Below, in pieces: positions 3 to 61,317 of a DNA stretch of 64,000 nucleotides. The notes under the pieces are model-generated. The model was not told where the DNA came from and ran no database searches. It worked only from the letters and a program-made list of their open reading frames with translations. Numbering within the stretch: position 1 is the stretch's first letter; every line of letters begins with the position of its first letter. Source of the DNA: Alphaproteobacteria bacterium (GTDB lineage: Bacteria > Pseudomonadota > Alphaproteobacteria > JBFXJJ01); assembly GCA_050175015.1 (NCBI GenBank), contig JBFXJJ010000001.1, forward strand, positions 224,001-288,000. Direction: 5' to 3'. A program made the translations under genes and the position numbers.

Positions 3-1595
3 ATTGCGATTGCTAACATTCAGCCGAGTCCTTTTCAGCCTCGCCGCAATTTTAATGAAGATAATATTGCCGATTTAGCCGAATCAATTAGAGAAAAAGG
101 TATTTTGCAGCCTTTAATCGTTAGAAAATCTGGTGTTGAAAATGTTTATGAAATTATTGCTGGCGAGCGTCGTTTTAGAGCCTCCAAAATAGTTGGATTA
201 GAAGAACTTCCAGTAATTATTAAAGATCTTTCCGATAAAGAAGTTCTAGAAGTTGCTTTAGTTGAAAACCTTCAAAGACAGGATCTATCGCCGTTAGAGG
301 AAGCTGAAGGCTATCAAAAGTTAATTAATGAATTTGGTCACACACAAGAGGCTTTGGCTAAAGTTGTAGGCAAAAGCCGTTCTCATGTTGCTAATACTTT
401 AAGACTATTAAATTTACCTGAAGAAGTTAAAAAAATGCTTCAGAGCGGCGAACTTTCTTCTGGTCATGCTAGGGCACTTCTTAATTCTGAGAATATGTTA
501 GAGCTGGCACAAGAAGTTATTAAAAAAGGTTTAAACGTAAGGCAGACTGAGAGTTTAGTTAAACAGCCTTCTGCTAAAGATGCGGTCACTAAACCTAAAG
601 CCGTAGTTAAAGAAAAAGATTCTGATATTTTAGCCTTGGAGAAAGAGCTTTCAAAACTTATGGGTTTGAAGGTTTTTATTAGATCTCAAGGTCGAGGCGG
701 CGAAATTGCGATTAAATATGGAAGCTTAGAGGAACTAGATGACATTCTCTTTAAGCTTGGAAAAATGGCAAAAAATTCTGATATGGATAATTCTGAGCTA
801 GTTGAAGATTTAACAGAAGCAGAAGTCGCACCAGAAATTTACGATGAAACAGCCACAGCTAGTATTGTTGATGATTTTGCTGAAACGATTGAAGAGGCGG
901 AATTGAGCGAGCAGGAAGTTTTTGAAGAAACGGCTGTTCCAGAAGAAGAAAATTTGATTTCTTCTGAAATTGATGAGGATCTTGTAAATCCTGTTGATGA
1001 TAGTGAAACCGCTATAGAAGAGGCTTATAATATTGAAATTGAAGAACAAGCTGATTTGGTAGATTCTGTTGAAAACACAGACGTTGTTATGGAAGATACT
1101 TCTGAAGTAGTAGGTGAATTTATAGAAGAATTTGATGTCGCAGGTGAAGCTCAAGAAGAATATATGGAAACGGAAGAAAATGCTGTTTCAGAAAATATTG
1201 AAGCTGAGGTCGAAGAATTTTTAAGTGATATGGCGGGTGCAGCTGAAGACGATATTGTTACCGAGGTTTTAGCGAACGATGCTGATTCTGAAGAAGATGC
1301 TGTAGTGGAAATAGATGATGGGGTGCAAATTGAAGAAGCTACTGGGGAGGAACCAGTCTTTGAAGAGCAAAATGAAGCTTTAAACCCTGAGGAAGAAGCA
1401 GTAATAACCCCAGAAAGTGAGACCGAGGAAGATTGGGCTGTTGGTCTTGATACGGTCATCGGCCTTGATGATGAAACCGAGGAAGAGGCTAAAACAGAAG
1501 AAGATGCTATTCCTGATGATGCTTGGGCAAAAGCTCTTAAGTTAGATGGCGAAGATGAGATTATAGAAGAAGCGGCTCCAGAAAATAAGGCTTAA
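3..1595 (+). CDS. parB: ParB/Spo0J chromosome partitioning protein with long acidic C-terminal extension (5' end lies upstream of the window)
   Basis: Frame is open from nt 3 (IAIANIQPSPFQPRRNF...GILQPLIVR). Has the GERRFRA CTP-binding motif, ENLQRQDL and HTH (TQEALAKVVGKSRSHVANTLRLL). Converges on holA-lptE-leuS as in other alphaproteobacteria. Confidence 0.95.
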   Translation: MAIANIQPSPFQPRRNFNEDNIADLAESIREKGILQPLIVRKSGVENVYEIIAGERRFRASKIVGLEELPVIIKDLSDKEVLEVALVENLQRQDLSPLEEAEGYQKLINEFGHTQEALAKVVGKSRSHVANTLRLLNLPEEVKKMLQSGELSSGHARALLNSENMLELAQEVIKKGLNVRQTESLVKQPSAKDAVTKPKAVVKEKDSDILALEKELSKLMGLKVFIRSQGRGGEIAIKYGSLEELDDILFKLGKMAKNSDMDNSELVEDLTEAEVAPEIYDETATASIVDDFAETIEEAELSEQEVFEETAVPEEENLISSEIDEDLVNPVDDSETAIEEAYNIEIEEQADLVDSVENTDVVMEDTSEVVGEFIEEFDVAGEAQEEYMETEENAVSENIEAEVEEFLSDMAGAAEDDIVTEVLANDADSEEDAVVEIDDGVQIEEATGEEPVFEEQNEALNPEEEAVITPESETEEDWAVGLDTVIGLDDETEEEAKTEEDAIPDDAWAKALKLDGEDEIIEEAAPENKA

Positions 1596-53402: not shown

Positions 53403-56400
53403 ATGACTATGAACTGGGTTGAAAATTTTTCAAAGACCTTAGTTGAAAAACTTGGGCAAAAAAAAGGCGAAAGTTTTGTAAAAAGATATGCTAATTCATT
53501 TAAATCCAATTATCACGACCGTTTTGATGCCGAAAGTGCATACAAAGATGTTTTAAACATAGAAGAAGTTGCAAAAACTGGAAAACCTTCAACCTATCTT
53601 TATGAACCAGAGAAAAAAGACGGAAACAAGGTCTGTTTTAAACTTTATTATCCAAGAGAATCCGCGGTTCTTTCTGATGTTATTCCTATGCTTGAGCATA
53701 TGAGTTTTAAGATTTTAACAGAAATTCCTTATCAATGCTCATTTCAAGATGCTAAAGAAACTGATGATATTAAATCAGTATGGGTACATAACTTTACAAT
53801 GGTTCGTATGGATAAAAGTAAGGTTGATGTCGAAAAAATAAGAGACGATTTTCAAGAAGCCTTTAAAAAGGTTATGGACGGTGATGTTGACGATGATGGT
53901 TTTAACTGCCTTATTTTAGTTGCAGGGCTTAATTGGCGTGAGGTTTCAATTGTTAGAGCTTATGCTCGTTATTTAAGACAAGCAGGTATTACACTTTCTC
54001 AGGACTACATTAACTCTGCTTTGGCAGCAAACCCTGAGATTACTAAAATGCTGGTTGATTACTTTGAATCTAAATTTAATCCTGCAGCAAGTGTCAGAAA
54101 AACATCAGCTGCCAAAATAGCTGAAATTGATGCTAAGATTAAAGCTGCTCTTGATAATGTAACAAGTGCAGAGGAAGACCGTATTATAAGATATATTGTA
54201 AATCTTTTAGAATGCACTCTTCGTACTAATTTTTATCAATCAAAAGCAAAAAATTACATTTCTTTTAAACTAAACAGCAAGGAAATTTATGATTTGCCTC
54301 TGCCACGTCCAATGGTGGAAATCTTTGTTTACTCTCCTCGTATGGAAGGCATTCATTTAAGAGGCGGCAAAGTTGCTAGGGGTGGTATTCGCTGGTCAGA
54401 CCGCCACGAAGATTACAGAACTGAAATATTAGGTTTGGTTAAAGCCCAAATGGTTAAAAATGTGGTTATCGTTCCAACAGGTTCTAAGGGCGGATTCGTC
54501 TGCAAAAAAATGCCTTACAATGGAACCAGAGAAGAAATCTTGGCTGAGGGCATCGAATGTTATAAAACATTAATGCGTGGTATTTTAGACCTCACAGATA
54601 ACATAGATTTAAAGAATGATAAAATTGTTCCTCCTGAAGATGTTGTTCGTTATGATGAAGACGATCCTTATCTTGTTGTGGCCGCGGATAAAGGAACAGC
54701 AAGCTTTTCCGATATTGCAAATGGTGTTTCTCAAGAATATGGTTTCTGGCTTGGCGATGCTTTTGCTTCTGGCGGTTCAGTCGGTTTCAGTCATAAAGAT
54801 ATGGCGATTACTGCAAAGGGCGCTTGGGAATGCGTTAAGCGTCATTTCCGCGAAATTGGCGTTAATATTCAAACGACTGATTTTCAAGTGGCGGGTGTCG
54901 GTGATATGTCTGGCGACGTATTCGGCAATGGTATGCTCTTGTCAGAACATATTAAATTAGTAGCAGCGTTTGACCATCGTAATATTTTTATTGATCCTAA
55001 TCCAGATCCTAAGAAATCATTTAAAGAAAGAGAACGTATGTTCGCTTTACCTCGCTCAAGTTGGGAAGATTATAACCAAGAGCTAATTTCTGAGGGCGGC
55101 GGTATTTTTAGCCGTAAAGCTAAAAGCATTACGCTTTCAAAAGAAATTAAAAATCTTTTGAATATTAAAGAAAGCAGCCTCACGCCTAATAATTTAATTA
55201 AAGCCATTTTAAGATCTAATATCGATTTGTTATGGTTTGGAGGTATTGGTACTTATGTTAAATCTTCGGCGCAAAGAGATTCTGATGTCGGCGATAGAAG
55301 CAATGATGCCTGCCGCATTAATGCTAACGAAATCAAAGCAAAGGTTGTGGGTGAAGGTGCCAATCTTGGTATGACACAAAAAGCTCGTATTGAATACTGC
55401 TTAAATGGCGGCCGTTGCAATACTGATGCTATTGATAATTCTGCTGGTGTTAATTGTTCTGATATCGAAGTGAACTTCAAAATTTTATTAAATGATATTA
55501 TTTCATCGGGTAAGATGGATATTAAGGGACGTAATAAACTGCTGGTAGAGCTTACAAGTGATGTTTCTAAGTTAAGTATGAGAGCTAATCAGCTTCAGGG
55601 GCAGGCTTTAAGCCTAATGCTTGCTCAAGGCACTTCGATTATGAGTGAGCAAAAAGACTTATTTAAGTTTTTAGAAGAAGATGGGCTTCTTAATAGAGAT
55701 GTTGAGTTTTTACCATCTAATGACGAAATGGACGATAGATTTTCAAAAGGTCAAGGGCTTACTAGACCTGAGCTTTCTATTTTAATGCCATATTCTAAAA
55801 TTTGGCTTTATAAACAAATTATAGAAAGCGATCTGCCAGATGATCCAATGCTTACAGAGCGGGCTTTGTTTAATTATTTTCCTAAACAAATTCGTGAAAA
55901 ATATGGTGAATTTATTAAGAGACATCGTTTACGTCGTGAAATAATTGCTAAACAGATTACCAATACTTTAATTAATCGTGTTGGTGGAACATTTGTTACC
56001 TCTCTTATGGAAAAAACGGGAATGCCTCCTTCAATGATTGCTAGGGCGTTTCTCGTAGCTGTTATTTCATTTTCGATTAATGATATCTGGGATAGTATTG
56101 AAGCTTTAGACAACAAAGTTGATGCCAAAGTTCAGACAATGATGCTGATCGAAATTAACCGTATTTTAGAAAGAATTACGCAGTGGATTTTAAGAAGAGG
56201 TCCAGCAAAAATTGATTTAACATTAGTTACCAAAGAATTCAAAAACAATGTTGATGATGTTGCCGCCTCTATTGATGCAGCGCTTGCAGCCGTAAATGAC
56301 AGCTATATTAAGGATTTTGCTAAAATTTATATGGATCAAGGTGTTCCTGAAATATTGTCGCGTCGTGTTGCTAGCATACCGTTACTTTCTTCTGGGCTTG

Positions 56401-56819
56401 ATATTGGTCAACTATCCAGAAAATATGGTGTTCCAATAGAAATAGTCTGCAGTATTTATTTTGCTATCGGTAAAGATTTTGATTTAAGATGGATGAGAGA
56501 TTCTCTCAGAAAAGATGTCTTTATTGACAGCCACTGGAAGCATCTTGCCGTTTTTGGCATTGAAGAATCGCTGTTTGCTCAGCAGCGTTCAATTGTTGCT
56601 CGTATTTTGGAATATCTTGGCAAAGATATTGTTAAACTTGCGAAGAAGGATCCTTCTTTTGAAGGTGCAATTAATTCATGGAAAACGGAGCATGAGTATA
56701 TCGTAAAACGTATATCCAAAGTAATTCGTGATATTAAAGCATCAAATAAAGTTGATTTAGCAATGATGATGGTTATGACACGCAATCTAAGAGCTTTGTC
56801 GGAACCACGATTATTGTAA
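53403..56819 (+). CDS. gdhB: NAD-specific glutamate dehydrogenase (large type, N-terminally shortened)
   Basis: RGGIRWSDR, KAQMVKN, DDPYLVVAADKGTA, GDAFASGGS, GVGDMSGDVFGNG, GEGANLG and DNSAGV motifs. Confidence 0.93.
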   Translation: MTMNWVENFSKTLVEKLGQKKGESFVKRYANSFKSNYHDRFDAESAYKDVLNIEEVAKTGKPSTYLYEPEKKDGNKVCFKLYYPRESAVLSDVIPMLEHMSFKILTEIPYQCSFQDAKETDDIKSVWVHNFTMVRMDKSKVDVEKIRDDFQEAFKKVMDGDVDDDGFNCLILVAGLNWREVSIVRAYARYLRQAGITLSQDYINSALAANPEITKMLVDYFESKFNPAASVRKTSAAKIAEIDAKIKAALDNVTSAEEDRIIRYIVNLLECTLRTNFYQSKAKNYISFKLNSKEIYDLPLPRPMVEIFVYSPRMEGIHLRGGKVARGGIRWSDRHEDYRTEILGLVKAQMVKNVVIVPTGSKGGFVCKKMPYNGTREEILAEGIECYKTLMRGILDLTDNIDLKNDKIVPPEDVVRYDEDDPYLVVAADKGTASFSDIANGVSQEYGFWLGDAFASGGSVGFSHKDMAITAKGAWECVKRHFREIGVNIQTTDFQVAGVGDMSGDVFGNGMLLSEHIKLVAAFDHRNIFIDPNPDPKKSFKERERMFALPRSSWEDYNQELISEGGGIFSRKAKSITLSKEIKNLLNIKESSLTPNNLIKAILRSNIDLLWFGGIGTYVKSSAQRDSDVGDRSNDACRINANEIKAKVVGEGANLGMTQKARIEYCLNGGRCNTDAIDNSAGVNCSDIEVNFKILLNDIISSGKMDIKGRNKLLVELTSDVSKLSMRANQLQGQALSLMLAQGTSIMSEQKDLFKFLEEDGLLNRDVEFLPSNDEMDDRFSKGQGLTRPELSILMPYSKIWLYKQIIESDLPDDPMLTERALFNYFPKQIREKYGEFIKRHRLRREIIAKQITNTLINRVGGTFVTSLMEKTGMPPSMIARAFLVAVISFSINDIWDSIEALDNKVDAKVQTMMLIEINRILERITQWILRRGPAKIDLTLVTKEFKNNVDDVAASIDAALAAVNDSYIKDFAKIYMDQGVPEILSRRVASIPLLSSGLDIGQLSRKYGVPIEIVCSIYFAIGKDFDLRWMRDSLRKDVFIDSHWKHLAVFGIEESLFAQQRSIVARILEYLGKDIVKLAKKDPSFEGAINSWKTEHEYIVKRISKVIRDIKASNKVDLAMMMVMTRNLRALSEPRLL

Positions 56820-56842: not shown

Positions 56843-56886
56843 AAACAAGTGAAAAACTCTTTTATGATAGTTTTTCACTTGTTTTT
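56843..56886 (+). terminator. Terminator after gdh
   Basis: aaacaagtgaaaaact...agtttttcacttgttttt. Confidence 0.7.
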
Positions 56887-57020
56887 CTTGTAATACAACA
56901 AAAATATAATAACGAGATTGATACATATTTAGAAAAATAAATAAAAAATAACAAACTTATAAATAATATCAAGATAGTTTATAATAATACGCTTGTTTTT
57001 TTTCTTGTTATCTTTTAAAG

Positions 57021-57252
57021 TCTAGAAGGTTTGCAAGAGTTTGCAGACTAGGGCGTCGAAACCCTTTGATGTGTGCAGCTTGGCACAGGCTGATTTATTT
57101 ATGTGTCGCCTCGGTCCTAGGGTCGGGGTGATAACAGTGTATGTACAAGTTCCCTCCCCCAAGAGATAGGACTAAAGACTGTTATGCCTTTTTACATCAA
57201 GGTTTTCGAACACCCCGACCGCCAAGCTAAGCTATTTTGGCGGTCACATCGG
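57021..57252 (+). ncRNA. Candidate structured RNA / cis-regulatory leader upstream of an MCP
   Basis: About 48% GC in very AT-rich flanks; outer stem 57056-57072/57194-57209; internal hairpins with G-U pairs favouring the + strand; no family recognised. Confidence 0.5.
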
Positions 57253-57362
57253 TATGCAGTAATTTTATTGATACATAACTGAAACGATTAAGAAATATTC
57301 TTGATACAGAAATATGCTTTAATAAGATTATTGTTGTTAGTACTTTTTATAGGGGACAGGCT

Positions 57363-59066
57363 ATGTTTGCTGTAGTAACAAGGTTAAAATTTTCTCAAAA
57401 AATTATTATTTCATCTATGTTATCGCTATTAGTATTAGGCGGAACTTTGACAGTGCAGTCATCACGCGGCATTAAACAGGAAATGCTTCAAATGGCTCAA
57501 GAAGACCAAAATACTTCTCTTAATGTATTAAAAGCAATTTTTGCTAATATGGGCAGTGAGATCAAAATATCCGATAATAAGTTGATGGTAGGAGAACATA
57601 TTGTTAATAATGATTATCTTATAGTTGATAGAGTGAAAAACATCTCTGGTGGTGTTGCAACAATCTTTATGAAAACTATAAAAAACGGTTCAATTGAATT
57701 TGAGCGCGTGTCAACTAATATTGTAAATGACAGCGGAAATAGAGCTGTTGGAACTCTTTTAGCTAAGGGTGCTGTTTATGATAGTATGATGAATGGCAAA
57801 ACATTTTTTGGTGAGGCTGATATCTTAGGTAAAAGCTATTTTACAGCTTATGAGCCGATAAAAGACAGCCGAGGTGAAATTGTTGGCATTTATTTTGTTG
57901 GTTTATTACAAAGCGATTTCTTAGGTATTATTAACAAAACAATAAATGATTTGGTTCTTATTTCATTAGTAACAGTTATTGTTATCACTTTGCTTTTGAC
58001 TATTTTCTTCAAGAAACAACTTAAAGTTATGTTAGATTTAAATAATGTAATGGGCGATATTTCAAACGGGGACTTTAACATAAAAGTTCCAGGACAAAGC
58101 CGTTATGACGAAATCGGCGATATGGCAAGAGCTGTTGAAGTGTTTAAAGAAAATGGTATTAAGACCAAAGAGCTCGAAGAAGCTCAGAAACAAGCTGAGA
58201 TTAGAGCTGCCAAGGAAAAGAAAGAAATGATGCATAAAATGGCAGATGACTTTGAAAAAGCAGTTATGGGTATTGTTGACGCTGTATCTGCTGCCGCTAC
58301 CGAAATGAATTCGACGGCTGAGAATATGTCAGCTATTTCCGAAGAAACAGCTCAGCAGGCAACCGCAGTTGCCGCAGCTTCCGAACAAGCTGCTGCGAAC
58401 GTTCAAACTGTTGCCGCCGCTGCTGAAGAACTTTCCAACTCTATTGCTGAAATTTCAAGGCAGGTGACAGAAGAATCAGCTATAGCTAGACAGGCTGTAG
58501 AAGAGGTTCACACAACAAATGCTGTGGTTGGCGGACTTGTTCAATCCGCTCAAAGAATTAGTGAAGTTGTTGAACTCATCACTGATATTGCCAATCAAAC
58601 GAATTTACTTGCTCTTAATGCAACGATTGAAGCTGCTCGTGCTGGTGATGCTGGCAAGGGATTTGCTGTTGTTGCTAGTGAAGTTAAGAATCTTGCTAAT
58701 CAAACAGCAAGGGCAACGGAAGATATTTCTAATCAAATTTCTGATGTTCAGGGTAAAACTAATCAGGCGGTATCAGCTATTACTAACATCGGGTCTGTTA
58801 TCGATAAGATTGATGAAATATCAGCTGCAATCGCTTCTGCTGTTGAACAACAAGGCGCAGCAACATCTGAGATTTCACGTAATGTTGAACAAGCATCACA
58901 GGGAACAGCTGAAGTATCTAATAATATTGTTGGCGTAACACAGGCTGCAGGTGAGGCTGGTTCAGCGGCTAACCAAGTTTTGACAGCATCTAAAGAACTT
59001 GCTCAAAAGTCAGTTCTTTTAAGAGATGAAGTTAAAAACTTTATTGTAAAAATTAGAGCATCATAG
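57363..59066 (+). CDS. Methyl-accepting chemotaxis protein (Cache sensor domain, HAMP)
   Basis: TM1; Cache-type ATIF...RVSTN...GNRAVGT...[10 protein letters not shown]; TM2; DEIGDMARA; [17 protein letters not shown]. Confidence 0.95.
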
Positions 59067-59586: not shown

Positions 59587-61317
59587 ATGGCAGAAGATGT
59601 AAAAGATAAAGTTTCAGGATTTTTAAAGAAGGATTTAAAAATTTTTGTTTGTGGTGATACTACCAAAAGACCAGATGATGTTTTTAGACAGTCATCAATA
59701 ATGCTTTTAAATAAAAAGGCCGATGGCCGCACTATTTATGCTGAACCAGCAAAAGATCAAAGAGGTGTTGTCGATATTAGTTTTGACAAACCTGTTGCTG
59801 GCGGCGAAATTGAGAAATCTACAACGAGATCAAGCAGAGATTTCACAGAATTATCAAATGTCTTAAAAGAACTAGGCAATGTTACTTGGGTTATGGATAA
59901 AGATGCCATTTTAAGAACATTTGCTCTTGATACCGATCCTAACAAGACAAAACTTAAGGCCTTTGAAAAACATTTAGCGGCGTTTTCTAAAGAAGAAAAC
60001 AATGAATTGACCAGCCAGCTTAGCTATAGAGATAAGCAAATGCTTTATAAAGAAGTTATGGAAAAAGAAAACAATCCATTTTCTTTAGCAATTCCATCAA
60101 CTACCATTGATGGCAATGTTGGCGTTATTAACCCAGCAGATGCAGATATGCCAATTCATGATATGTTTTTCCCATATTTGGCAGAAAAGGGTATTGGCTT
60201 GGAAGAGTATAACCAATTTATTAATACTCATGAAGCAGGACATGCTAACGATAGACGTAATCACAGAACGCAATTCAGTGATAAGGCAGAAACTAATTGG
60301 ATGCGCCACAGAACAGAATGCGTAGCTGATACATTCTCAACTCTTATGCTTGCAAGAAAAACAGGAAATACTAATGTTGGTGAGCTTGCTGCGGATGTTC
60401 GTAACGAATTAACAGTTCAAGGTTTAGCATATATACAAAAATATCTTGATAAACAAAGACAAGAACAGCTTGGTGATGGCGTTGCCTTTAGAATTTCAAG
60501 CTTATCTAAATCTCTTTCAGAATATGCTGATGATAATTTTGAAGACAGACCATACGTTGGTAGTGCTGCTTTGAAGAAATTTATGGAAGAAGAAAAAGCT
60601 AAAAAAGAAGGTAGGCCTGTTGCCAGAAAACAAGAGCCAAGTTTTGTTGAATCTATTATTAATGATTTTGATGGCAAATTGACGGCTTCTGCTTTTTCTA
60701 GAACACCTGAAGATGTTTTAGGCTCAATCATCGCATACACAACAACGCCAACGGTTGATGCAACAATAAAAGTTGCAAAAGAAAAACTTAAAGATGGCAG
60801 CTTGCAGGCAATGTCAACTAAAGAAGTTTATTCTTTGGCAGAAAAAATGGTTGATGAAAATACTTTCAGCAAAGAAAAAGTTGCGAAAATGATTTCCAGC
60901 TTTATGAAGGGCGAAACAATGCCTGAGTTTGAAGCTATTTTCAAACGCAGAGCTGAATCAGGTTTAACTGTTACAGATAACAAAAAAGTTAAAGCTGAAG
61001 AAATGACAGGGAAACAAACAGCAGATTATGACAGAGGTTTCAGAGCAAAAATTGCATCTGATTCTAAAGTAGATGTTATAAATGCAGTTGAAACTGAGAA
61101 GGATAGATTAAGAGCTATCGATCCATTTAAAGCTAGTTATGTTACAGCTCATAGCAAAATTGAACATCTTAATGATAAATACATTGATGGCAATGGGAGC
61201 AAATCTAGAGATGCGGTTAAAGCTAAAATCTTAGCAAACAAAGATAAAACCAAAAAAGCCAAAGGCAAAAAACAGCCTTCTGTTGCTAACTTGGTTAATA
61301 AAAGCAAAACTAGATAA
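59587..61317 (+). CDS. Hypothetical protein with HExxH zinc-metalloprotease-like motif and basic C-terminal tail
   Basis: INTHEAGHA followed by TECVADTFS (ExxAD); ends ...KQPSVANLVNKSKTR. Confidence 0.7.
   Translation: MAEDVKDKVSGFLKKDLKIFVCGDTTKRPDDVFRQSSIMLLNKKADGRTIYAEPAKDQRGVVDISFDKPVAGGEIEKSTTRSSRDFTELSNVLKELGNVTWVMDKDAILRTFALDTDPNKTKLKAFEKHLAAFSKEENNELTSQLSYRDKQMLYKEVMEKENNPFSLAIPSTTIDGNVGVINPADADMPIHDMFFPYLAEKGIGLEEYNQFINTHEAGHANDRRNHRTQFSDKAETNWMRHRTECVADTFSTLMLARKTGNTNVGELAADVRNELTVQGLAYIQKYLDKQRQEQLGDGVAFRISSLSKSLSEYADDNFEDRPYVGSAALKKFMEEEKAKKEGRPVARKQEPSFVESIINDFDGKLTASAFSRTPEDVLGSIIAYTTTPTVDATIKVAKEKLKDGSLQAMSTKEVYSLAEKMVDENTFSKEKVAKMISSFMKGETMPEFEAIFKRRAESGLTVTDNKKVKAEEMTGKQTADYDRGFRAKIASDSKVDVINAVETEKDRLRAIDPFKASYVTAHSKIEHLNDKYIDGNGSKSRDAVKAKILANKDKTKKAKGKKQPSVANLVNKSKTR

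Follow-up and report, generated by a model that had tools for sequence, protein, structure and literature searches.

What is a short guanine-cytosine (GC)-rich island doing in the intergenic region ahead of a chemoreceptor gene? The island encodes a structured RNA at positions 57029-57245 (+ strand) of a stretch of 64,000 nucleotides (nt), here called the window, taken from an alphaproteobacterial genome of 2.53 Mb and 35.5% GC recovered as a landfill metagenome bin. A preliminary description, made from the letters of the window, had singled it out as a GC-rich RNA standing against an AT-rich upstream region, and the composition agrees, with 47-51% GC over 57050-57249 and 15-18% over 56850-56999 in steps of 100 nt. 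Comparison with relatives identifies the stretch as a genuine, strongly conserved folded RNA of about 195 nt. It belongs to a family that is large, mostly uncatalogued and carried on plasmids and other mobile DNA. The function towards which we lean, with slightly better than even confidence, is that of a processed antisense-RNA leader module with its own promoter, working on mobile elements by a logic like that of C4, the small antisense 'immunity' RNA of phage P1.

The case for the fold depends on relatives, because folding of the single sequence is weak and blind to strand (+ strand -81.5 kcal/mol, z -2.8; - strand -82.4 kcal/mol, z -4.7). All covariance searches used one model, R1, built from the four closest copies of the window genome, and the structural statistics come from 101 sequences aligned to it. 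Standard pairs occupy 94.3% of 4919 cells, pseudoknots included, against 66.7% in shuffles; both sides have changed in 49 of 51 pairs, and pairing falls to 38-47% when partners are slid by 1-3 columns. The top 30 column pairs by corrected mutual information are all pairs of the R1 model. The + strand is indicated by the G-U pairs, which are U-G in 55/101 and 31/101 sequences at two pairs of hairpin P3, and also by the terminators and ribosome sites found downstream. Both the multi-stem RNA on the + strand and the major stems proposed at the outset are thus upheld: each stem reads directly at its place, relatives carry compensatory changes, and the covariation looked for in homologues is present. 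Two short stems drawn in the same description, tgtgc/gcaca and aggc/gcct, found no support in the family consensus, which has at that place the conserved hairpin CAGC (57076-79) / GCUG (57089-92). Eighty of the loci were collected by a pattern in which some letters of strand 2, strand 3 and the P4 loop were fixed; the b:b', c:c', P0, P2, P4 and P5 helices, described below, lay outside that pattern.

The RNA opens with the 5'-terminal hairpin P0 (57029-57048, +; gtttgcaa 57029-57036 / ttgcagac 57041-57048, loop gagt), in which 94.2% of cells are paired and all six modelled pairs show double changes. Hairpin Ha follows (57050-57065, +), formed by a (AGGGC, 57050-54) and a' (CCC, 57062-64); this stem is 86-88% paired, occurs in variants such as GGGG/CCCC, GGAGC/GCUCU and GGGA/UCCC, and has a within-sequence complementarity of 3.58 versus 3.12 +/- 0.05 with permuted partners. 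Its loop is b (UCGAAA, 57056-57061, +), the first of two putative upstream recognition or decoy segments, the second being c (57066-57072, +). Covariation assigns both of these segments of the 5' domain to partners in the 3' domain. Segment b pairs with b' (57204-57209; tcgaaa / tttcga) about 140 nt away, through six pairs that are 97.5% paired, show double changes throughout and take ranks 4, 5 and 25 by mutual information among all column pairs; c pairs with c' (57194-57200; ttgatgt / acatcaa) through eight modelled pairs, 93.1% paired, again with double changes in all, at ranks 1-3, 7 and 8. Further on are P2, the CAGC/GCUG hairpin mentioned above (four pairs, 91.9% paired, terminator-like according to a scan), with a U-rich tract behind it (57076-57103, +), and the G-U-rich hairpin P3 (cgcctcgg 57107-14 / tcggggtg 57123-30), whose 5' arm is strand 1 (57107-57116, +), marked by three-strand covariation as a competitor for strand 2.

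The 3' domain (57121-57224) is bounded by an outer stem in which strand 2 (GGUCGGGGUG, 57121-57130, +), with a predicted ribonuclease P (RNase P) cut immediately 5' of it, joins strand 3 (CACCCCGACC), which runs into an RCCA-like tail, GCCA (together 57211-57224, +). This stem encloses P4 with P5, and the hairpin Hd. P4 (57131-57185, +; AUAACAGU / ACUGUUAU) has as its arms the aacagt / actgtt stem (57131-38 / 57178-85) and contains an internal loop, GUAUGUACA (57139-47) / CUAAAG (57172-77), whose letters are at least 90% conserved, a figure partly imposed by the search pattern; it encloses the variable hairpin P5, and the two helices are 95.6% paired over eight pairs and 90.6% over four. In Hd (57186-57202, +), d (CCUU, 57187-90) pairs with d' (AAGG, 57199-57202) at a complementarity of 3.61 versus 2.57 +/- 0.08 permuted, and the loop presents c' (ACAUCAA, 57194-57200). 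The domain thus displays two variable recognition segments, c' in the Hd loop and b' (57204-57209, +), which covaries with b and would be single-stranded in the predicted mature RNA; b:b' and c:c' form two hairpin-loop pseudoknots that mask b' and c' in cis. The domains are also connected by a single isolated pair that covaries, C57054:G57186, read as C-G in 60 of 98 sequences and as U-A in 19. A pairing of a with d was rejected (complementarity 2.77 versus 2.70 +/- 0.05), and an a':d' extension of the long helix amounts to merely 2 bp in most members. Last comes a 3' hairpin (57217-57245, +; GACCGCCAA / UUGGCGGUC, that is, gaccgccaa 57217-25 / ttggcggtc 57237-45), the 5' arm of which overlaps strand 3.

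Strand 2 has two partners. With strand 1 it makes P3, eight pairs that are 90.2% paired and include many U-G; with strand 3 it makes the outer stem, ten Watson-Crick pairs in the window copy (ggtcggggtg 57121-30 / caccccgacc 57211-20) and 98.2% paired in the family. At the only variable position of strand 2 the three strands change together (strands 1/2/3 read U/A/U in 74 sequences, A/U/A in 5 and G/U/A in 3), so both pairings are under selection. Duplex 2:3 averages -19.4 kcal/mol versus -10.0 for 1:2 and is the stronger of the two in 101/101 sequences. Two kinds of platform adjoin strand 3 downstream: in 47/111 members the CGAYCRCC end of strand 3 serves as the 5' arm of a hairpin with a U run, an intrinsic terminator, and 61/111 have a G-rich complement of strand 3 right before a start codon, with both platforms in 19/111 and neither in 22/111, by criteria that are crude for either kind. 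The predicted behaviour follows the logic of a classical attenuator, in which 1:2 together with 3:4 is expected to terminate transcription or block the ribosome site and turn the gene off, and 2:3 to allow read-through or leave the ribosome site free and turn the downstream gene on. The two mutually exclusive folds tied to the downstream hairpin that had been proposed for the window copy are therefore a conserved property of the family, attested by the three-strand covariation and the 47/111 terminators.

The family was recognised by degrees of relatedness. In the window genome BLAST and nhmmer gave three further diverged copies, 65-81% identical over parts, and the R1 search added a fifth; these copies carry compensatory differences in nearly every stem, and their flanks cannot be aligned. 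Full-length R1 matches occurred in 13/61 genomes and then in 22/151, taken at one genome per family within the same class, with up to 10 copies in a genome; both counts include genomes G000 and G040, and copy numbers and genome counts are lower bounds, 16-41 candidates per genome having been scored in the large searches. In a phylum sample of 151 genomes, the four other matching genomes were all of the same class. A pattern scan of named genomes produced at least 120 stretches, from which 80 loci were kept, all 80 with a full-length R1 match. Among the matches listed, most are from Alphaproteobacteria (Rhizobium, Shinella, Devosia, Ruegeria, Celeribacter, Sphingomonas, Xanthobacter, Hyphomicrobium, Micavibrio, and Rickettsiales and gut bins), with a few from Acidobacteria; in the neighbourhood of Granulicella, where 81 genomes were sampled, the centre genome alone had a match. 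A search with one Rhizobium copy returned 389 plasmid records (218 Agrobacterium, 78 Rhizobium), 282 of them predicted conjugative, and only 2 phage records. Many dispersed copies could have meant a repeat of the miniature inverted-repeat transposable element (MITE) type, an eventuality raised at the outset; the identity of 65-81%, the compensatory changes, the unalignable flanks and the gene-fixed orientation show that the copies are not a MITE. Literature searches, among them the parts available of PMC11109978 and PMC8632094, gave no description of the alphaproteobacterial RNA, and the cuckoo RNA, as portrayed in the available part of PMC4615179, is a different family.

No Rfam family reaches its gathering score at the element in the window or in 16 named loci, none appears there at E up to 0.1 in 8 loci, and ARAGORN reports nothing in the window. 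The top match below threshold, in 3/3 members tested, is the small RNA (sRNA) family sRNA-Xcc1 (RF02221), aligned over its full model, 1-87, at 23.6 bits for the window copy and 18.8 and 20.9 bits for two relatives; the alignment spans strand 2, P4, Hd, b' (the 'UUugAg' stretch of the model), strand 3 and the CaCC tail. The expectation that this was no known RNA family therefore holds as far as Rfam thresholds go, and fails in that the 3' half is a distant relative of sRNA-Xcc1. As the accessible texts describe it, sRNA-Xcc1 is an 88-nt RNA of Xanthomonas campestris with mapped ends (PMC2996969), precedes symE on the same strand in the Xanthomonas integron cassette of widest distribution (bioRxiv 10.1101/2025.06.18.660453), and is present in seven copies in one Xylella strain (PMC12189769). 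RF02221 exceeds its cut-off in 24/151 phylum genomes sampled, often in several copies, and the flanks of 20 such true loci (L195-L214) were read. In 17 of the 20, a 4-bp hairpin with a loop complementary to b', followed in the right order by a segment complementary to c', lies 74-135 nt upstream; the upstream complement averages 8.95 nt versus 6.20 +/- 0.28 with permuted partners, and R1 aligns over its full length, 5' domain included, to 2/20. Because the true loci carry this Ha-b-c 5' domain, the published sRNA-Xcc1 would be the 3' half of a longer leader, and the published family appears to represent only half of its transcript. The window RNA belongs in kind with the sRNA-Xcc1 leader, as an alphaproteobacterial branch that has diverged. 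In the RF02221 loci, copies of b and c stand on either side of the next gene's ribosome site (for instance b-GGAG-c), the downstream complement averaging 6.90 versus 5.38 +/- 0.23, and the 10 downstream proteins tested include three with Bro-N, two of these also with P22_AR_C and antirepressor-like, and one with Rha. Genomes G136 and G228 hold R1-type leaders and, elsewhere, weak RF02221-type matches (32-34 bits), so two branches of the family coexist in one cell. About 60-100 nt upstream of the annotated RNA, L195-L214 also show a P2-equivalent hairpin, then 5-7 U, then letters like GYGCC-TTGAAT; this has the look of an intrinsic terminator within the leader, perhaps followed by an internal promoter, and the 88-nt RNA might then be transcribed there separately from the 5' domain.

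How could such a leader work? The outer stem starts with GGU in 98/134 members and with GGC in 10/134, and R-C-C stands directly behind it in 98/134, extended to RCCA in 59/134. Such an RCC(A) tail resembles the discriminator-CCA end of a transfer RNA (tRNA). Upstream of the RNA, a promoter-like TTGNNN-16..18-NANNNT ending 2-12 nt 5' of the RNA start is found in 43/133 members versus 4.6 (maximum 10) in shuffles. In the part of the C4 literature available (PMC5320573), the C4 RNA of P1 and P7 has three stem-loops and is released from a longer transcript by host RNase P, the cut falling at a GGW motif where the outer stem begins on its 5' side; C4 contacts its target through loops a' and b', of which b' occludes the ribosome site. 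An upstream c4-a1b1 motif is listed beside C4 in the Weinberg 2010 table, in the portion of PMC2864571 at hand. By analogy, the favoured leader module would be a self-contained transcription unit in which its own promoter precedes a leader of about 195 nt. RNase P would cut 5' of strand 2 and free an RNA of about 100 nt, and this product would act in trans on transcripts with matching b and c, binding either the ribosome site, as at sRNA-Xcc1 loci, or the 5' domain of nascent leaders. In the alphaproteobacterial type, where b and c are transcribed about 130 nt before their own partners, it would bind b and c of nascent leaders before the cis partners are made; the cis fold that joins strand 3 to strand 2 would then be prevented and 1:2 with 3:4 would win. 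On entry of the DNA into a naive cell the gene would be expressed in a burst and then shut off, each paralog having in its b/c pair a private address. Taken in full, this amounts to an addressable 'entry pulse' switch, with a cis fold that is ON and an RNase P-cut 3' domain that returns in trans to b/c so that the trap forms; we regard that complete version as tentative and rather doubtful.

Several observations weigh against the processed antisense leader. C4 itself (RF01695) gave no match at E up to 10 in short scans of three members, so the comparison with C4 is one of architecture only. In the alphaproteobacterial type, the complementarity of c'-d'-b' to the downstream region is 5.40 versus 4.97 +/- 0.09; since this is marginal, a C4-like attack on the ribosome site would not be the main mode there, and what stands out at the platform is strand 3 (6.06 versus 5.31 +/- 0.08). 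The resemblance to RF02221, at 19-24 bits, is well under the gathering score of 53. Because the 80 loci were collected by pattern, the letters of both outer-stem strands and of the P4 loop look more conserved than they are. The high conservation of the P4 internal loop would suit a ligand pocket. In the window copy no U run follows the 3' hairpin (57217-57245), and the ribosome site of the chemoreceptor gene offers no complement to strand 3 or to c'/b' of the window RNA; transcription and processing of that RNA are predictions from its sequence, and trans feedback on the 5' domain is our proposal. Trans targets of the five copies were also sought across the genome; the criteria proved too permissive, and the output was noise of which nothing was used.

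The genes beside the copies bear on what is being controlled. A same-strand open reading frame (ORF) with a ribosome site lies within 400 nt downstream in 110/112 members, by a permissive ORF call, and at 60 nt or less in most. Pfam assigned no shared function among 85 downstream proteins, of which the commonest family, HTH_3, accounts for 3/85; the other products include lipoproteins, outer-membrane proteins, GGDEF/EAL proteins, methyl-accepting chemotaxis proteins (MCPs), restriction enzymes, methylases, nucleases, antitoxins, glycosyltransferases and many unknowns. Nor is there a conserved upstream partner gene, upstream genes being equally mixed. Plasmid copies stand near traA, traR, an Xre-RES pair and toprim/DUF3085 genes. 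The address function proposed for b and c is illustrated by the 3.7-Mb genome G228, which has seven copies (L174-L180), six of them before a paralog of a 137-residue XRE regulator (motif ITFQQVQKYERGTNR); at the seventh (L175), a 78-residue ORF was called in another frame, and by eye an ATG four bases on matches the others. At each of the seven, strand 3 pairs with GGUGGUCG and with the ribosome site GGGGAGUU to give a bipartite hairpin, and the seven paralogs have seven different b/c pairs.

The five copies of the window genome precede two chemoreceptors, a small sCache_2 protein, a DUF1232 protein and a type ISP restriction enzyme. The chemoreceptor at copy B (L160:4150-6093, - strand, contig C12) combines the MCP signalling domain with two 4Fe-4S motifs and an Fe-only-hydrogenase large-subunit domain and is an unusual redox-type sensor. 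Copy D (L161, contig C19) lies directly 3' of a GAF-PAS-GGDEF-EAL gene and before genes for the 144-residue sCache_2 protein and a Na+/H+ exchanger. Copy E (L163), on the 2.8-kb contig C45 that ends on both sides, stands before the type ISP restriction-modification enzyme (Mrr_cat_2, ResIII, ISP coupler).

At the window locus itself, the upstream neighbour is a large NAD-glutamate dehydrogenase (gdh) gene (53403-56819, Pfam). A hairpin with a U run immediately 3' of it (56843-56884), most likely the gdh terminator, also gives a weak, chance-level match to ohsC RNA (E 1.6). With this terminator standing upstream, the RNA would need its own promoter. The candidate, CTTGTT ... TTTAAA (56992-57020, +), is suggested by the family-wide hexamer excess and is weak in the window copy; a promoter scan with an E. 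coli-type consensus gave no + strand site at 56992-57020. Downstream, the gene for a 567-residue Cache_3-HAMP-MCP chemoreceptor (57363-59066, +, Pfam) starts 117 nt after the end of the 3' hairpin at 57245, and the promoter scan places a promoter-like site between them, at 57301-57328. Past the chemoreceptor gene, a 576-residue ORF (59587-61317) matches no Pfam family at E up to 0.001. The window copy scores neither as a terminator nor as ribosome-site sequestration. The tie between RNA and MCP gene that its position had suggested is consequently weak here, given the absent U run, the absent ribosome-site pairing and the intervening promoter-like site; the MCP gene seems to have a promoter of its own, and the window RNA may still be transcribed and act in trans.

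Set against the processed antisense leader are four other accounts. One takes the RNA for a new riboswitch class, whose pseudoknotted core (Ha, Hd, P2 and the P4 loop) binds a small molecule or ion and so stabilises 2:3 as an ON switch. It draws on the two kinds of expression platform attached to one conserved core, as in known riboswitches, on the highly conserved junction letters (GUAUGUNCA / UAAAG, GGGG), on a complex fold with two pseudoknots and a lone covarying tertiary pair, and on some genes of a second-messenger flavour downstream (GGDEF 2/85, EAL 1/85, MCPs, outer-membrane proteins, an autotransporter and glycosyltransferases). The lack of a common function downstream nonetheless argues against a metabolite riboswitch: no family exceeds 3/85, and the rest are restriction enzymes, antitoxins, XRE regulators, nucleases and unknown small proteins. 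The RNA is patchily distributed and carried on plasmids, b:b' and c:c' differ among all paralogs of one genome in the manner of address labels, the RCC tail and GGU start are left unexplained, and the sRNA-Xcc1 relatives have been detected as an 88-nt RNA, according to the part of PMC2996969 available. We consider a riboswitch improbable. Of the initial proposal of a 'novel riboswitch/attenuator or independent ncRNA' (noncoding RNA), the attenuator-like exclusive pairings and the absence of an Rfam family at threshold have stood, and the riboswitch has become a rival. Similarly low is the probability we attach to a purely cis-acting attenuator, thermosensor or protein-bound leader, in which 1:2 melts or is displaced and 2:3 forms, with neither processing nor a trans product. 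Its layout of 1:2/3:4 versus 2:3 is that of an attenuator, and P3 is systematically weak (U-G in 55/101 and 31/101; -10.0 kcal/mol on average). Weak, G-U-rich hairpins of this kind resemble RNA thermometers. Yet a thermometer would need far less than this scaffold of about 130 nt and its two covarying pseudoknots, no conserved neighbouring gene would supply the protein, and by eye no upstream reading frame is conserved, codon 2 behind the conserved AUG varying among U, A and C and P5 varying in length but not in threes. An upstream frame consisting of a Shine-Dalgarno-like GGAGG, a spacer and the conserved AUG of the P4 loop was set aside, by eye only. The 11-nt tetraloop receptor, the T-loop, the cobalamin riboswitch, the T-box and transfer-messenger RNA (tmRNA), compared by their general descriptions only, did not fit.

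The remaining two accounts loosen the bond with the downstream gene altogether. If the element were an independent trans-acting sRNA gene with incidental neighbours, as the literature sees sRNA-Xcc1, which the title of a 2011 paper by Chen terms a trans-acting sRNA, then its own promoter, the terminator of its own in 47/111 members and the promoter that the window MCP gene seems to possess would all be expected. Less compatible with it are the same-strand ORF with a ribosome site within 400 nt in 110/112 members (again by the permissive call), the ribosome-site complement to strand 3 in 61/111, and the b and c copies that flank the ribosome site in sRNA-Xcc1 loci, and we rate it as quite unlikely. 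The least probable account by far, close to negligible in our judgement, makes the element act as DNA, be it as a MITE-like repeat, an integron attC-like site or a single-strand promoter of a plasmid leading region. Several copies per genome, conjugative plasmids and the seat of sRNA-Xcc1 in integron cassettes (bioRxiv 10.1101/2025.06.18.660453, in the part available) speak for it, but the copies differ compensatorily, with G-U kept and A-C not, their flanks are unalignable, their orientation is always that of the downstream gene, and terminators and ribosome-site pairings make sense in RNA only.

The RNA occurs in about one in seven of the sampled alphaproteobacterial families and, in Agrobacterium, Rhizobium and Sinorhizobium, on hundreds of plasmids, and is invisible in genome annotation because it is missing from Rfam. 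Given its link with sRNA-Xcc1, work on that sRNA in Xanthomonas, Xylella and other carriers should be approached differently. Were the 'entry pulse' correct, sRNA-Xcc1, for 15 years listed as a trans-acting sRNA of 88 nt, would be the processed half of a leader, and chromosomal genes such as those of chemoreceptors would have captured the device. Should processing and feedback both be true, the module would be a compact and orthogonal device, made of RNA alone, that controls genes on incoming DNA, and of interest to plasmid biology and also to synthetic biology because its paralogs offer many address pairs; if instead this model failed and a ligand were found, the family would be a new riboswitch class.

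Among known systems, riboswitches and attenuators such as the trp leader share with this RNA the four strands that pair as 1:2 and 3:4 versus 2:3, and a conserved core with interchangeable platforms. It departs from them in having no coherent regulon and no conserved leader peptide, and in variable helices that would act as address labels. With sRNA-Xcc1 the likeness extends to the outer stem (GGYCGGGRNG / CNYCCCGRYC), the first hairpin, the second with its variable loop, the U-rich single strand and the CaCC, as well as to multiple copies, association with mobile elements, a position upstream of a gene of the same orientation and the Ha-b-c 5' domain. However, the window RNA scores 23.6 bits where the threshold is 53, and the two models find different loci in G136 and G228. 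The sRNA-Xcc1 loci have b and c copies flanking the ribosome site, whereas in the alphaproteobacterial type strand 3 itself pairs there or enters a terminator. The Rfam model of sRNA-Xcc1 and, in the parts available, its literature deal with the 3' part of 87-88 nt alone and treat it as a stand-alone trans-acting sRNA.

The comparison with C4, for which the a1/b1 and a2/b2 details are in part general background, would be one of likeness of mechanism and not of membership. The present RNA differs in that its 5' domain is a structured double pseudoknot, in having strand 1 as an extra competitor, and in building a terminator or ribosome-site platform on the outer stem itself; its hosts, too, are alphaproteobacterial plasmids, islands and chromosomes rather than P1-like phages, only 2 phage records having been found. 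What the two have in common is an outer stem that starts with GG, two recognition elements, and sites complementary to these upstream in the same transcript, and in the sRNA-Xcc1 branch the likeness goes further, with complements of the recognition elements at the ribosome site and antirepressor genes downstream.

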